From: a plasmid
Assembly: GCF_053078305.1 (NCBI RefSeq)
Contig: NZ_CP166877.1
Length of the DNA: 7,047 bases
Reading direction: 5' to 3' (one strand)
The notes beneath the pieces were generated by a model. The model saw only the letters and a program-made list of their open reading frames with translations. It was not told the DNA's origin and searched no databases. How positions within the stretch are numbered: the stretch's first letter is position 1; every line of letters starts with the position of its first letter. Made by a program: the position numbers and the translations under genes. Of this stretch, positions 1-5,573 are shown piece after piece.

Positions 1-1599
1 ATGATAGTTAAGTTTCATGCCAGGGGAAAAGGCGGTGGCAGTGGTCCGGTTGATTACCTGCTGGGCCGGGAGCGTAACCGGGAAGGGGCGAGAGTTCTGC
101 GGGGTGCTCCCGAAGAGGTGCGGGAACTCATCGATGCCACGCCGTTTGCGAAAAAATACACCTCGGGGGTTCTGTCTTTTGCAGAGCAGACCCTGCCACC
201 GGGAGAGCGTGAAAGGGTGATGGAGAGCTTTGAGCGGGTACTGATGCCCGGTCTTGAAAAAAATCAGTACAGCATCCTGTGGGTGGAGCACCAGGACAAG
301 GGGCGTCTTGAGCTGAATTTTGTCATCCCGAATATGGAGCTGGCGAGCGGAAAACGGCTCCAGCCCTATTACGACCGGGCGGACCGTCCGCGAATCAATG
401 CCTGGCAGACACTGGTGAATCACCATTACGGGCTGCACGACCCGAACGCACCGGAGAACAGGCGGACACTTGTCACCCCGAATAATCTGCCGAAAGCGAA
501 ACAGGAGGCCGCAGAAGCGATTACGAGGGGACTGGAGGCTCTTTACCATGCCGGAGCGCTAAAAACGCGTCAGGATGTCACTGAGGCGCTTACAGCGGCA
601 GGTTTTGAGGTGGTGAGGACAACCAGGAGCAGTATCAGTATCGCCGACCCGGAGGGCGGGCGTAATCTCAGGCTGAAAGGGGCGCTGTATGAGCAATCTT
701 TTACAAATGGGGACAGACTTCGAGAAGAAACTGAAAGAGCGTGCCGTCTCTACAGAGAACATGCTGAACAGCGAGTTCAGGAAGCTCGAAGCGTCTGTAG
801 ACAGGGAACTGAACTTAAACGGGCAGAAAATCAGAGACGCTATCAGCGCACACACAGCAGCGGTGAAAGAACAACTGGAGACGCTGAACAGTGCCGTGAA
901 CGCGCAGTTCAGCGCCACAGAGAACGAACTGGCCCGGCGGCAGGAAGAGCTGCTCTGGAAGCTGATCAAAGGGCGGATACTGTACCCGTCGCTGACGGCG
1001 CTTTGCGTCACGGGCGGGATTTTTCTGGCGTCATGGGGGCTGATTCAGTGGCAGGAAAGCCGTATTGCGGCGAACATCCTGGCTATCAGGGACCAGGAAG
1101 AGACGCTGGCGAAACTCCGGGAAAAAACATGGGGTGTGACGTATCACGAGGGCAGGAACGGGAAATTTCTGGTGCTGCCGTCCGGGGTGAAGGGGGAAAA
1201 CAACTGGACGGTGGAGAAGAAGAACGCAGTAAGACTGGTCAGGGAGTAAGTGAGTATGACAGAGCTGGAAATGCACTTACTGAACGCCTTAGAGCAATTG
1301 CAGCAGGACTATACGCAGCGGCTGAAAGACTGGGAGAGCGCCTTCACGGATTTGCAGCATATGTTCGAGCTGACACGACAGGAGAACGGGCAACTGAGGG
1401 AACAGTGCGACGACTTGAGTCAGCAGGTGCAGAGATTAGCCGGGCAGGTGGACCGCTTGAGTCGGTTATTTATCACGAACAGCAGATAAGGGATGAACAG
1501 GAAAGGCAGGCACGCCTGGAACGGGAGCGTGCGCGGTCCTGGCATGAAGAGCAGGAACGGGAAGTACGGGTATGGCGTGGCCCGTCAATGGGGATGTGA
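1..1599 (+). CDS. mbeA: Mobilization relaxase MbeA (MobA-like, HEN-type relaxase of ColE1-family plasmids)
   Basis: 532-aa ORF starting at base 1. The N-terminus MIVKFHARGKGGGSGPVDYLLGRE matches the ColE1 MbeA N-terminus as I recall it, including the catalytic Tyr in VDYLLG. A His/Glu/Asn motif (WVEHQDKGRLELNFV) fits the HEN relaxase signature. The C-terminal third is low-complexity Arg/Glu-rich and hosts the nested mbeB/mbeD frames. Confidence 0.9.
   Translation: MIVKFHARGKGGGSGPVDYLLGRERNREGARVLRGAPEEVRELIDATPFAKKYTSGVLSFAEQTLPPGERERVMESFERVLMPGLEKNQYSILWVEHQDKGRLELNFVIPNMELASGKRLQPYYDRADRPRINAWQTLVNHHYGLHDPNAPENRRTLVTPNNLPKAKQEAAEAITRGLEALYHAGALKTRQDVTEALTAAGFEVVRTTRSSISIADPEGGRNLRLKGALYEQSFTNGDRLREETERACRLYREHAEQRVQEARSVCRQGTELKRAENQRRYQRTHSSGERTTGDAEQCRERAVQRHRERTGPAAGRAALEADQRADTVPVADGALRHGRDFSGVMGADSVAGKPYCGEHPGYQGPGRDAGETPGKNMGCDVSRGQEREISGAAVRGEGGKQLDGGEEERSKTGQGVSEYDRAGNALTERLRAIAAGLYAAAERLGERLHGFAAYVRADTTGERATEGTVRRLESAGAEISRAGGPLESVIYHEQQIRDEQERQARLERERARSWHEEQEREVRVWRGPSMGM
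689..1249 (+). CDS. mbeB: Mobilization protein MbeB, nested inside mbeA in the +2 frame
   Basis: 186-aa ORF wholly inside mbeA in another frame, which is the classic ColE1 mob arrangement. ATG start is preceded by AAGGGG about 8 nt upstream. The product has a hydrophobic segment (LTALCVTGGIFLASWGLI) consistent with a membrane-associated accessory protein. Confidence 0.75.
   Translation: MSNLLQMGTDFEKKLKERAVSTENMLNSEFRKLEASVDRELNLNGQKIRDAISAHTAAVKEQLETLNSAVNAQFSATENELARRQEELLWKLIKGRILYPSLTALCVTGGIFLASWGLIQWQESRIAANILAIRDQEETLAKLREKTWGVTYHEGRNGKFLVLPSGVKGENNWTVEKKNAVRLVRE
1256..1489 (+). CDS. mbeD: Mobilization protein MbeD (reported entry-exclusion role in ColE1), nested in the mbeA 3' region
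   Basis: Same +2 frame as mbeB, directly after the mbeB stop (TAA 1247-1249). The ORF track starts it at GTG 1250, but ATG 1256 has the better Shine-Dalgarno spacing (GGGAG 1242-1246, 9-nt spacer), so the start is placed at 1256 (alternative 1250). Product is a 77-79 aa coiled-coil-like protein (MTELEMHLLNALEQLQQDYTQRL...). Confidence 0.7.
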   Translation: MTELEMHLLNALEQLQQDYTQRLKDWESAFTDLQHMFELTRQENGQLREQCDDLSQQVQRLAGQVDRLSRLFITNSR

Positions 1600-1759
1600 C
1601 GGTGAGTTGTTCCGGGAGGTTGCCAGATGGTACCGGAACGCGTTAAAAACGCATCCGGGCGCGATTCTGGCGTGTCGTTTTTGTTGCTGTGTTTTGCCTC
1701 TTTGCCAGATCGCGCTCATTCCTCAGCCTCATCCCGCGATGTCTGCGTATGTCATCAAC

Positions 1760-1939
1760 TGAAAAGATGGAAAAAAAACAGTGTCATGAGGTTTACGCAG
1801 GCAAAACCAGCGTTATTCACATGGCTGAATAGCTATGCATACGGTTAAAATTTATCAGGTGCGATCGCGGCAGCTTTTCGGGTGGTTTGTTGCCATTTTT
1901 ACCTGTCTGCTGCCGTGATCGCGATGAACGCGTTTCAGC
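1760..1939 (+). promoter_or_regulatory. cer accessory sequences (PepA/ArgR-binding region), with a candidate ARG box near 1825-1841
   Basis: Lies immediately upstream of the XerC-side of the cer core, as in ColE1 cer. TGAATAGCTATGCAT at about 1826-1840 resembles the ARG-box consensus (TGAAT-4-ATTCA) and sits about 115 bp upstream of the crossover region. Extent of the accessory region is approximate. Confidence 0.5.
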
Positions 1940-1969
1940 GGTGCGTACAATTAAGGGATTATGGTAAAT
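1940..1969 (+). other. cer-type XerC/XerD recombination core (multimer resolution site)
   Basis: GGTGCGTACAA-TTAAGGGA-TTATGGTAAAT at 1940-1969 matches the ColE1 cer core as I remember it: 11-bp XerC arm, 8-bp central region, 11-bp XerD arm. Confidence 0.85.
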
Positions 1970-1972
1970 CCC

Positions 1973-2395
1973 TTACTGTCTGCCCTCGTATCCATCGAGA
2001 TAAACCGCAGAAATGGTGTCTGCCATTAGTTTCATTTTTTTCGGCGAAGGCATATCGCTGTTTGTGTATTTTCTGCCAGCAAAGGTTGTTGTGCTCCGGA
2101 GTGAGTGAAAAAATTTTTCTGAGTGGAATTCTTTTACACGTTGCTGTGCCGTTTCTGCTGATACTCCGGCTGCTTTGTCTTTCACCCCCATATCCCGGAA
2201 CTGCTGAAAGAACGGGAGCATCATACGTATGGTGTCTGCTTTCTGGGTGTAGAAGTTAGGATCAAATCCATCATCTGAAGCATAAACATAATGCCGGGTA
2301 TGTCGTTCCAGGCTGGTCTTTGGTGTGCATCCTGTAAGAGCTATTGTTGCTGTTATCAGAGGTATCAGAAGCAGCCTGGCAGCGGCAGATCTCAT
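1973..2395 (-). CDS. Putative outer-membrane lipoprotein of unknown function (possibly the Exc1-like ORF of ColE1-type plasmids)
   Basis: ORF 1973..2401 (-). The N-terminus has a signal peptide and lipobox (LLLIPLITATIALTG-C). Residue +2 after the Cys is Thr, not Asp, suggesting outer-membrane sorting. Start is placed at the second ATG (2395) because AAGGAG lies 6 nt upstream of it; the first ATG at 2401 abuts the SD. No catalytic motif recognised. Confidence 0.6.
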   Translation of the reverse strand: MRSAAARLLLIPLITATIALTGCTPKTSLERHTRHYVYASDDGFDPNFYTQKADTIRMMLPFFQQFRDMGVKDKAAGVSAETAQQRVKEFHSEKFFHSLRSTTTFAGRKYTNSDMPSPKKMKLMADTISAVYLDGYEGRQ

Positions 2396-2516
2396 AAACA
2401 TCTCCTTGCGTTTTTAATCTTGATACTCAGGGAGTTATATCTCCGAAGAGTATCTCTTATCATACGTCGGTTTACTCCCAATGTGATTTTATGGTCAATG
2501 AGTCAGGAATAATCCC

Positions 2517-2795
2517 GTGAAAAAATGTGTGCCAGTCCTGCTTTTTAGTGTTCTTTCTGCTTCGGTTGCCAGTCATGCGGACAGCAATGTTTTTCAACAA
2601 AAGGCCGAGAAGACAAAAAACGGCATTGTTGCGGATGTTAATGCCAGACAGAAAATGTTCAGTAACAGACTGAAGATACAACTTCAGATCGATGAGTTGA
2701 GAGCAGAGCTGGCTGGCACCAGAGATGCCCAAAAAAGAGAGGATTTGCGTAAAAAACTGGAGTCTCTGGAGCGGCAAAAGAAATCCTTACGCTGA
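2517..2795 (+). CDS. Small exported coiled-coil protein (Sec signal peptide), function unknown
   Basis: 92-aa ORF with GTG start at 2517 and AGGA 8 nt upstream. N-terminus MKKCVPVLLFSVLSASVASHA|DS is a typical signal peptide with an A-x-A-like cleavage site. The mature ~71-aa part is highly charged and heptad-like (LKIQLQIDELRAELAGTRDAQKREDLRKKLESLERQKK). The antisense ORF 2472..2777 looks non-protein-like, which favours this strand. Confidence 0.5.
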   Translation: MKKCVPVLLFSVLSASVASHADSNVFQQKAEKTKNGIVADVNARQKMFSNRLKIQLQIDELRAELAGTRDAQKREDLRKKLESLERQKKSLR

Positions 2796-3104
2796 TGGGG
2801 GCGTATTTTCCCCGGTTTCTTCCATAACCTTTTTACCGTTCAGATATTTACGGGCGAGGCGAATGCGTCTTGCCTGGTATACCGCTGAGTAAGCCTGGGT
2901 GGGATTCACACCATTACTGATTTCACTGACCACATGACGCTGATCAGCCAGTGTCAGCGTGTAAACCTGTTTCTGGATGAGGTCACGGGCTTTGTCATAC
3001 TCATATCCGGCAGCAACAAGGGTGTCGAGAAGTCGTTTGTCTGTTTTGTTCAGTTTATGGCGGGGTGATTTGCTCACATCGTTCTCCGTTTTTTCATGAT
3101 CCAA
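2787..3104 (-). CDS. Small basic protein, possibly DNA-binding (HTH-like), function unknown
   Basis: ORF-track ORF of 105 aa that begins at a TTG (RC of 3102-3104). A more plausible start is the in-frame GTG at 3077 (codon 10), with GGAG 6 nt upstream, giving a 96-aa product. The sequence is Lys/Arg-rich with a helix-turn-helix-like stretch (VVSEISNGVNPTQAYSAVYQARRIRLARKYL). Its 3' end overlaps the convergent 92-aa gene by 9 nt. Confidence 0.45.
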   Translation of the reverse strand: MDHEKTENDVSKSPRHKLNKTDKRLLDTLVAAGYEYDKARDLIQKQVYTLTLADQRHVVSEISNGVNPTQAYSAVYQARRIRLARKYLNGKKVMEETGENTPPSA

Positions 3105-3209
3105 CAGTTTTATATCTCATCCTGATTTGCTCCGGTGTTCTGTTTCGACGTTCTCAATGCCTGCCTCCCCATAGTGTGATCCTTATTGCAAAAATGAAAA
3201 TCCATGCTC

Positions 3210-3238
3210 TTGACACGGACAATGCTGAGTAGTAGGTT
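3210..3238 (+). promoter_or_regulatory. Colicin operon sigma70 promoter (-35 TTGACA 3210-3215; putative -10 TAGGTT 3233-3238)
   Basis: Consensus -35 TTGACA, a 17-bp spacer and an imperfect -10, immediately upstream of the tandem LexA boxes and about 80 bp upstream of the colicin ATG. This is the usual colicin promoter architecture. Confidence 0.7.
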
Positions 3239-3242
3239 TTCA

Positions 3243-3273
3243 CTGTACATAAAACCAGTGGTTATATGTACAG
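3243..3273 (+). promoter_or_regulatory. Tandem LexA (SOS) operators overlapping by 1 bp
   Basis: CTGTACATAAAACCAG (3243-3258) and GTGGTTATATGTACAG (3258-3273), each close to CTGT-N8-ACAG. The double overlapping SOS box is the hallmark of colicin promoters, and the arrangement is near-identical to the colicin E1 operator as I recall it. Confidence 0.85.
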
Positions 3274-3317
3274 TATGCTGTTTTTAATTTATTGTTTTAA
3301 TTATCAAAGAGGAATTT

Positions 3318-4964
3318 ATGGCTAAAGAACTAAGTGGATATGGCCCAACTGCTGGTGAGTCTATGGGGGGAACAGGGGCGAATCTGAATCAGCAAGGTGG
3401 AAATAATAATAGTAATAGTGGGGTTCACTGGGGTGGTGGCTCTGGGCATGGTAATAATGGTGGTCAGGGAAATTCAAATTCATCTGGTTCTACATCAACT
3501 GTGATGAAAACCGGTGAGTCATATCTGACTCCGTGGGGTGATGTTGTCATTAATAATGATGGCCTTCCGGTGATGAATGGTATTGTTATGACAGAAGAGA
3601 ATTCAACTCTGGTTGATAATCCATTTGGAGGGGTCTCCAGAGTTCTTAATTCTTTAATTAGTGATATGCCATCACTTTTTGCAGAAAGCTCAGGAAATAA
3701 CAACAATAACACTGCTTCAGTTAATACTGCACCAACGAATGCTCAGGTCAGTGATATGGATAAGAGTTCGAAGGTGGTGGGTAATGTAATTAATGAAAAA
3801 CAAAAGCAGAAGAATAAAATTGCTACACAGATTAGTGAAAAACAGAAGAAAATAGAGGAGATGAAAAAAGTATTCAAGCATCATTCTTATCATGGTATCA
3901 CTGATCTTGAGAGGGATGTTGATGAGTTGCAAAAAAAATCAAATCAGCTTGATGCAGATATTAGCAAACTTAATTCTTATAAAAATACATTGCAAAGTAA
4001 AATTGGTGATGTGAATAAACAGAAGGAAGCTGAAGAAAAGGCTCGTGAAAATGCAGAGGTCGCTGAACATGAAACTCTTAATGAAGAGAAACAGGCGGTG
4101 GTGGAAGCAGAGAAGCGTTTAGATGAGGCGAAAGCTGAACTGGCGAAGGCTGAAAGTGATGTACAGAGTAAGCAAGCTACTGTTTCCAGAGTTGCAGGAG
4201 AGCTTGAAAACGCTCAGAAGAGTGTTGACGTGAAGGTCACCGGATTTCCGGGATGGCGTGACGTTCAGAAAAAACTACAGCGTCAGCTTGAAGCTAAGCA
4301 GGCTGAGTACTCCGCAGTTGAAAATGAACTTAAGAATGCTGTTAGTTTCAGGGATGGCAAGGCTGCTGAGGTAAAAGAGGCAGAGCAGAAATTAAAAGAA
4401 GCTCAGGATGCTCTTGAAAAGAGCCAGATAAAAGATGCTGTTGATACTATGGTTGGGTTTTATCAATATATAACCGAACAATATGGAGAAAAATACGCAA
4501 AAATTGCTCAGGATTTAGCGGAAAAGTCTAAAGGAAAGAAAATTCAAGGTGTTGATGAAGCTCTGGCAGCATTTGAAAAGTATAAAAATGTACTGGATAA
4601 GAAATTCAGTAAAGTTGATCGGGATGCTATTTTTAATGCGTTAGAGTCTGTTACTTATGATGAGTGGGCAAAGCATCTAGAAAAGATCTCTAAGGCTCTT
4701 AAGGTTACCGGATATTTGTCTTTCGGGAATGATGTATGGGATGGTACCCGGAAGGGATTAGAAACAGGAGACTGGAGGCCTTTATTTGTCACTCTGGAGA
4801 AGAGTGCGGTAGATTTCGGAGTGGCAAAAATTGTGGCATTAATGTTCAGTTTTATTGCTGGTGCTCCTCTTGGTTTCTGGGGGATTGCTATTATCACTGG
4901 TATTGTTTCTTCTTACATAGGGGATGATGAGCTGAACAAACTTAATGAGTTGTTAGGGATTTAA
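3318..4964 (+). CDS. cka: Pore-forming colicin of the E1/K/5/10 family; length and organisation best fit colicin K
   Basis: 548-aa ORF with AAGAGG SD 5 nt upstream. It has the three expected parts: a Gly/Asn/Ser-rich low-complexity N-terminal translocation domain, a long Lys/Glu-rich coiled-coil central region, and a C-terminal channel domain closely resembling the colicin E1 pore domain as I recall it ([59 protein letters not shown], then the hydrophobic hairpin [33 protein letters not shown]). Colicin K is 548 aa; the specific K assignment is from memory. Confidence 0.92.
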
Positions 4965-5454: not shown

Positions 5455-5467
5455 GCTGCCTGTAAAC

Positions 5468-5573
5468 GAAAAAACCCGCCTTGTGGCGGGTTCTTCCGTC
5501 CGATCAGAAGTCTTCGACCTCTTCTAATCGGCGGTGGTAACTGGCTATCGCAGAGCACAGGTACCTAAATTGT
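5468..5573 (-). ncRNA. RNAI antisense copy-number control RNA
   Basis: The reverse complement reads ACAAUUUAGGUACCUGUGCUCUGCGAUAGCCAGUUACC..CCGAUUAGAAGAGGUCGAAGACUUCUGAUCGG..AACCCGCCACAAGGCGGGUUUUUU. This gives three stem-loops and a terminal hairpin plus U-run, homologous in layout to pMB1 RNAI but with different stem and loop sequences. Confidence 0.8.

Follow-up and report, generated by a model that had tools for sequence, protein, structure and literature searches.

In ColE1, two small genes on the minus strand, exc2 (3943-4362) and exc1 (4443-4880, encoding the 145-aa Exc1), lie in the interval that runs from the cer crossover site to the colicin SOS promoter. Entry exclusion was first proposed for these exc genes and later re-assigned to mbeD, as two papers describe it, one of which explicitly calls ExcI a protein of unknown function (PMC2831885, PMC11493245). 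The label 'entry exclusion' should therefore not be read as the function of Exc2. We analyzed the corresponding region of a 7,047-nt stretch of plasmid DNA (NZ_CP166877.1, the whole of which is referred to as the window), which is a complete ColE1-type colicin K plasmid with an mbeD gene of its own. Its segment 1973-3104 holds three small genes between cer and the colicin K promoter, namely exc2 and two genes that we call ORF-B and ORF-C, and these are real but unrelated. The segment is probably a mosaic of three independent genes, the first a true Exc2 and the other two from uncharacterised families, and would form an accessory region in the place where ColE1 carries exc2-exc1.

The three genes differ in their distribution. 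Exc2 was found in 930 and ORF-C in 200 PLSDB plasmid records, ORF-B in 114 plasmid records, and each also occurs without the others; these separate distributions argue against a single module. Most of the Exc2 plasmids (733 of the 930) are typed as mobilisable. ORF-B is limited to plasmids of Escherichia, Shigella and Salmonella, where it is also present on large IncF and IncK plasmids that lack Exc2 and an intact ORF-C, and a diverged copy (64% identical) adjoins toxin-antitoxin genes, with no Exc2 or intact ORF-C nearby. The occurrence of ORF-C follows toxin genes and ColE1-type backbones rather than Exc2.

An earlier note on this DNA, made from the sequence alone, had described a poorly characterised three-gene block at 1973-3104 and left open whether it was new or just under-annotated. 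The ORF listing places the three genes exactly where that note did, and PGAP calls the same three coding sequences (CDS) on the 7047-bp E. coli plasmid NZ_CP046541.1, whose region is 99.5% identical to that of the window, naming one an Exc2 family lipoprotein and two hypothetical proteins. The block is under-annotated: at least 94 PLSDB records hold at least 80% of window 1900-3250, at 98-99.5% identity. Among 5,426 complete E. coli genomes, 83 hold most of segment 2400-3320, and 423 of the 425 matches to it are on plasmids. The segment thus is one known-family gene plus two conserved hypothetical genes, already sequenced many times over. The features of the window are as follows.

1250-1489: mbeD (ORF, comparison with ColE1)
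1940-1969, no strand: cer crossover core, the left edge of the accessory region (sequence)
1973-2395, minus strand: exc2, Exc2-family outer-membrane lipoprotein of 140 aa (NF033828, PGAP, identity to ColE1 Exc2)
2396-2516, no strand: intergenic region between the divergent exc2 and ORF-B (consensus scan)
2517-2795, plus strand: ORF-B, 92 aa, GTG start (ORF, PGAP)
2787-3077, minus strand: ORF-C, 96 aa, GTG start (ORF, PGAP); the 3' ends of ORF-B and ORF-C overlap by 9 nt
3078-3317, no strand: divergent region between ORF-C and cka (sequence, alignment of seven homologous regions)
From 3318: cka, the colicin K gene, with overlapping LexA boxes ahead of it at 3243-3273

Judged by their substitution patterns, all three genes are under purifying selection. 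The dN/dS ratios (Nei-Gojobori) are 0.16-0.33 at dS values of up to about 1-2: 0.24 for exc2 against ColE1 exc2 (dS 0.93), 0.22 for ORF-B against its 64%-identical relative (dS 0.96), and 0.16-0.33 for ORF-C, for which six pairs were compared. Ratios of 0.5-2.6 were obtained in the two other same-strand frames. The earlier note had two of the three genes using non-ATG starts, and so it is: ORF-B and ORF-C both start with GTG, which is kept in every homologue examined. The GGAG Shine-Dalgarno sequence upstream of ORF-C is conserved in the homologues examined as well. As the 105-aa form of ORF-C, which would start at a TTG, depends on an extension that is not conserved, the product is likely 96 aa; of the 96-105 aa basic protein described earlier, the basic character (pI 9.8) stands and the shorter form is the likelier. 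Relatives that carry insertions in this region still have all three frames intact.

Two further reading frames were considered and set aside. A 101-aa ORF antisense to ORF-B (2472-2777) was dropped because substitutions in the remaining two same-strand frames of ORF-B do not resemble those of coding DNA and the ORF-B frame itself is selected, a basis that does not take in the antisense frame itself. A seven-codon upstream ORF, MKKRRTM* (3076-3099, minus strand), whose stop overlaps the GTG of ORF-C, is destroyed by a 1-nt change in relatives with an S4-like colicin and is absent from pPCP1; it is probably non-functional. In an Rfam scan RNAI at 5466-5572 was the sole match, and none fell within 1973-3104.

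The lipoprotein encoded at 1973-2395 is clearly a full-length member of the Exc2 family. It matches NCBIfam NF033828 with 179.5 bits (cut-off 35). Its residues 15-141 cover positions 6-131 of the 131-position profile, and its identity to ColE1 Exc2 is 68%. The 140-aa lipoprotein proposed earlier is thereby borne out, with an ATG at 2395 and, as read from the sequence, a lipobox L-T-G-C (...ALTG-C-TPK) followed by Thr at +2. In an alignment of 49 Exc2 homologues the lipobox Cys is invariant and a C-terminal YLDGYxG motif is conserved, in which D134, G135 and G138 are invariant or nearly so. When 1.84 billion representative proteins were scanned in full, 102 relatives were found; the distant homologues are chromosomal, with no recurring neighbour or partner. 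The AlphaFold2 (AF2) model has a pLDDT of 91.6; neither a profile nor the model retrieved a meaningful relative from the PDB, and no Pfam family, TraT included, was matched. The exc2 stop codon lies 3 nt from the cer core, and the cer-exc2 synteny is that of ColE1. The small, mostly helical lipoproteins of this family belong to the backbone of ColE1-type mobilisable plasmids.

The lipobox and the Thr at +2 predict sorting of Exc2 to the outer membrane. In outer-membrane vesicles of S. sonnei (GMMA), proteomics found an Exc2 orthologue at 0.42% of the vesicle protein mass (PMC3368891, PMC4820968). The S. sonnei plasmid orthologue is approximately 70% identical to the Exc2 of the window, and its detection in vesicles indicates that the family is expressed and membrane-associated. 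Exc2 might have a role at the envelope surface that aids the plasmid-bearing cell, for example a minor exclusion or barrier function. We weakly favor an outer-membrane lipoprotein with an envelope role other than that of the main exclusion determinant.

Beyond exc2, the window and ColE1 part ways. ColE1 DNA matches window 1822-2463 (ColE1 3792-4426, comprising cer and exc2) and 3177-3319 within the colicin promoter; since homology ends at 2463 and resumes at 3177, ORF-B and ORF-C replace exc1 at the same site. ORF-C gave no BLASTP alignment with ColE1 Exc1 at E ≤ 100, and neither ORF-B nor ORF-C matched Exc1 at E ≤ 10. The suggestion in the earlier note that the block corresponds to exc1/exc2 is therefore right for exc2, which agrees in sequence and position, and wrong for exc1.

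The N-terminus of ORF-B, MKKCVPVLLFSVLSASVASHA followed by DS, reads as a Sec-type signal peptide, consisting of MKK, CVPVLLFSVLSASVA and SHA ahead of D, with an AXA-type site. The 64%-identical homologue keeps both the signal peptide (MRK, FVTALIIGGFSV and SAHA ahead of E) and the GTG start. The mature part has 71 aa, is highly charged and has a pI of 10.2. No match to ORF-B was found in Pfam, NCBIfam, PHROGs, PADLOC or the PDB (the latter searched with the mature protein). Of the signal-peptide coiled-coil protein proposed earlier, the signal peptide holds; the coiled coil was dropped, as the best register places five LIVMF residues at a/d positions in 47 residues, which 87% of shuffled sequences equal in this crude heptad test. 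ORF-B is probably a small exported periplasmic protein, which seems to move independently of exc2 and ORF-C.

On a ColA_N-type colicin plasmid, ORF-B (L027 596-901, against window 2517-2795) carries a 9-aa duplication just past the signal peptide. On the same plasmid ORF-B has a dS of 0.30 (83% amino acid identity), versus 0.055 for exc2 and 0.077 for ORF-C. Being far more diverged than its flanks, this copy suggests that ORF-B either recombined locally or evolved faster.

ORF-C is predicted by AF2 to form four helices, with a core pLDDT > 90. Approximately 50 related protein clusters exist, every one of them unnamed. Pfam held no significant match, the bacteriocin-regulator families included, and the only PHROG match among the three proteins was that of ORF-C to PHROG 36305, of unknown function. 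A phage origin was considered and dropped, given that ORF-C had no match in 50,697 phage records (tblastn) or in an IMG/VR scan. A PDB profile search returned nothing meaningful, and a fold search of AFDB50 returned uncharacterised proteins only; the fold is common to Vibrionaceae proteins at approximately 20% identity. PADLOC gave no family at E ≤ 1 for Exc2, ORF-B or ORF-C. The homology searches proposed earlier placed the lipoprotein in the Exc2 family, through NCBIfam and ColE1, and left ORF-B and ORF-C without a characterised relative. The proposed structure comparison was uninformative: the Exc2 model had no relative in the PDB, and ORF-C gave no telling fold match.

A scan of one genome per species gave five loci, mostly pPCP1 or likely contaminant contigs. 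ORF-C-bearing contigs resembling pPCP1 or ColE1-type plasmids were seen in assemblies labelled Streptococcus parasanguinis, Paramuribaculum intestinale and Amphibacillus jilinensis (L033, L034 and L036), where they probably reflect contamination by plasmid DNA. In the S4-like colicin plasmids (L013-L016, 4001-4393) a C-terminal frameshift extends ORF-C to 130 aa, reading through the 3' end of ORF-B and leaving the four-helix core unaffected.

Toxin genes lie within a few kb of ORF-C in every context examined. In the window, ORF-C stands head-to-head with colicin K, and with the same three-gene block it is found beside a 498-aa S4-like colicin and beside a 456-aa ColA_N-type colicin. Elsewhere its homologues are likewise head-to-head with their toxin neighbours: with pesticin (pst), both on Y. 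pestis pPCP1 and on E. coli contigs, with what is left of a pesticin gene in Citrobacter koseri, with a small colicin-Z-related gene on 5.2-kb plasmids, and with a PAAR-like/Pyocin_S/CdiI_5 operon on Rop plasmids. The latter operon (L007-L010, approximately 1266-3924) encodes a 163-aa PAAR-like protein, a 567-aa Pyocin_S protein whose N-terminal region is Cys-rich and PAAR-like, and, for immunity, a CdiI_5 protein. On these PAAR/pyocin-S plasmids homology does not extend beyond the coding sequence of ORF-C and the core of cer; their promoter is unrelated, and no LexA box was seen in the 116-bp upstream region.

On Lelliottia plasmids, an 81-aa ORF-C homologue comes second in an operon with rop (ATGA overlap), ahead of a MobC-like gene, an arrangement that tempers a purely toxin-centred reading. 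Three of the four Lelliottia plasmids carry, on the opposite strand, toxin operons that lie approximately 300 bp upstream of rop. These operons (L028-L031, approximately 400-4900) encode PAAR-like/DUF3289 and DUF943 proteins, and an 866-aa protein with a VgrG3-like C-terminal domain together with a TsiV3 immunity protein; the toxins look like type VI secretion effectors. The most fitting description of the ORF-C family is that of an accessory gene carried by toxin plasmids of the ColE1 superfamily, with a position that varies from the toxin control region to the replication-control operon.

At the left edge of the segment, the cer core was read as GGTGCGTACAA-TTAAGGGA-TTATGGTAAAT at 1940-1969, which we take to be the XerC/XerD core as in ColE1 cer. 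In relatives, different cargo starts at the cer/exc2 junction: 7.77-kb relatives (L024, NZ_CP129351.1) have a RelE/ParE toxin-antitoxin pair inserted between cer and exc2, and in two other plasmid types (L004 975-986; L007 4299-4352) ORF-C, and not exc2, directly abuts the cer core. The junction thus behaves as a module boundary, which suggests that cargo is exchanged at the Xer site or close to it. One relative has approximately 210 bp inserted between exc2 and ORF-B. In the window this interval contains a sigma-70-like match at 2487-2459 (minus strand; ATCACA-17-TATGAT), a candidate promoter for exc2 from the consensus scan.

At the right edge, region 3078-3317 holds the conserved ORF-C leader, a CRP-like site, the colicin -35 element TTGACA (3210-3215) and the overlapping LexA boxes. 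DNA of pPCP1 matches window 2830-3317, whereas that of ColE1 matches here only the 3177-3319 stretch. The CRP-like half-palindrome TGTGATCCTTATTGCA is located at 3175-3190, at the junction of the upstream sequence specific to ORF-C and the colicin promoter module that ColE1 also has, and its pPCP1 equivalent, GTGATTCAGATCAC, is a better palindrome. The site could serve both divergent genes.

The earlier note took the lipoprotein and its exported partner to suggest a cell-envelope function, and with ORF-C as regulator the three genes would make up one envelope module for entry or surface exclusion or for protection against colicins or phages. Exc2 is indeed an outer-membrane-type lipoprotein (PMC4820968) and bears the historical name 'entry exclusion protein 2', ORF-B has a signal peptide and is the divergent neighbour of exc2, and the whole block recurs in the 94 or more records and beside three different colicins. 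Such a module is nevertheless quite unlikely, since ORF-B is found alone and ORF-C without the other two, distant Exc2 homologues have no conserved partner, neither PADLOC nor a Pfam family such as TraT supports the assignment, and ColE1 exclusion has been re-assigned to mbeD, itself present at 1250-1489 (PMC2831885, PMC11493245). That ORF-B or ORF-C, or both, are chance ORFs in a conserved non-coding spacer is very improbable. Both are short, start with GTG, belong to no described family and are annotated merely as hypothetical; no promoter was found for ORF-C, and ORF-B is truncated in one large plasmid. Against this stand the low dN/dS at high dS compared with the other frames, the full frame, which tblastn found intact in 187 of the 200 plasmid matches to ORF-C and in 112 of the 114 to ORF-B, the conserved start codon, Shine-Dalgarno sequence and signal peptide, and the confident AF2 fold of ORF-C that recurs in distant Vibrionaceae proteins. 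The mosaic of independent genes accounts for the segment better. The most likely role of ORF-C, weakly favored, would be to bind nucleic acid in the cytoplasm as a plasmid-encoded regulator, either tuning the adjacent toxin promoter or tying the carriage of toxins to the housekeeping of the plasmid, namely its copy number or mobilisation. A regulator would explain both the head-to-head placement with very different toxins and the translational coupling to rop.

Regulation of the adjacent toxin promoter and regulation of plasmid housekeeping are both tentative possibilities, of similar and low probability. In the latter case ORF-C would be a housekeeping factor of the ColE1-type backbone, acting in replication control, multimer resolution or mobilisation, and would adjoin toxins, to which it would have no functional tie, only through sharing the cargo slot beside cer. 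We consider this unlikely, although the Lelliottia operon couples it to rop ahead of a MobC-like gene, it abuts the cer core in L004 and L007, and ColE1 and cryptic Rahnella plasmids carry in this place, next to the multimer resolution site, another small gene with a putative DNA-binding product, exc1 (PMC2831885). ORF-C stays with pst in pPCP1 and the E. coli pesticin contigs while cer is elsewhere, toxin genes are near it in all contexts examined, and most ColE1-type plasmids lack it (200 records versus 930 with Exc2). More broadly, the family, YPPCP1.06 of pPCP1 included, might represent unrecognised nucleic-acid-binding regulators dedicated to the toxin cargo of ColE1-type plasmids (colicins, pesticin, PAAR- and VgrG-type effectors), adding a plasmid-level control of bacteriocins or a coupling to copy number via rop; we think this unlikely. 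Several points weigh against a regulator of toxins. To our knowledge, no plasmid-encoded regulator has been reported for colicin K, the regulation of which (LexA, IscR, ppGpp) has long been studied. In most contexts the homology takes in ORF-C together with the conserved colicin promoter as a single block, so that the toxin association could be historical linkage, and as small ColE1-type plasmids have few genes, adjacency could come cheaply. Most colicin plasmids, ColE1 among them, lack ORF-C, and neither the consensus scan nor the homologous regions gave a convincing conserved sigma-70 promoter for it. Finally, the genes listed as induced by ciprofloxacin in a Y. pestis microarray study include pst and not the neighbouring YPPCP1.06 (PMC4871873).

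The main result for the window is a clean-up, in which a known-family exc2 and two conserved hypothetical genes take the place of an exc1/exc2 reading that was half wrong. What remains of interest is ORF-C, a conserved, selected and uncharacterised protein encoded at the regulatory DNA of several well-studied bacteriocins, colicin K and the pesticin of pPCP1 among them. If it regulates toxin expression or ties it to replication, models in which colicin and pesticin are controlled by host factors only (LexA, CRP, IscR) would be incomplete. The association of ORF-C with toxins is a modest, testable lead from material that is otherwise already in public databases.

Dedicated bacteriocin regulators are known in PrtN of P. 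aeruginosa and the clostridial UviA/TcdR-type sigma factors. ORF-C has no Pfam match to these and, at 96 aa, is too small for a sigma factor, so that the likeness is an analogy only. For exc2, the counterpart in ColE1 is close: it shares the lipobox, the C-terminal YLDGYEGRQ and the position right beside cer, and there is no structural difference. TraT and other surface-exclusion lipoproteins are, like Exc2, plasmid-encoded outer-membrane lipoproteins with a historical link to exclusion; Exc2, in contrast, is half the size of TraT, lacks the TraT Pfam match and is found on mobilisable plasmids without a mating apparatus of their own.

ColE1 exc1 occupies the same slot as ORF-C in the same orientation, between exc2 and the colicin SOS promoter and divergent from the colicin gene, and both products are small and look like nucleic-acid binders. 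Exc1 itself reads as an N-terminal helix-turn-helix (HTH)-like segment with a long charged helical tail, and looks more like a DNA-binding protein than one of envelope exclusion. The two differ in that exc1 is reported on cryptic, toxin-free ColE1-like plasmids (PMC2831885), while ORF-C was seen only on toxin plasmids among the contexts examined. A homologue of ORF-C in a described system is YPPCP1.06 of pPCP1, located between pst and pla, to which none of the papers searched assigns a function (PMC3010648, PMC5148098). It is approximately 71-76% identical to ORF-C and has the same GTG start. Its neighbours are pesticin and pla, whereas those of ORF-C are colicin K and ORF-B, but each of the two genes is divergent from an SOS-boxed bacteriocin gene, and the DNA homology between them spans the whole promoter.

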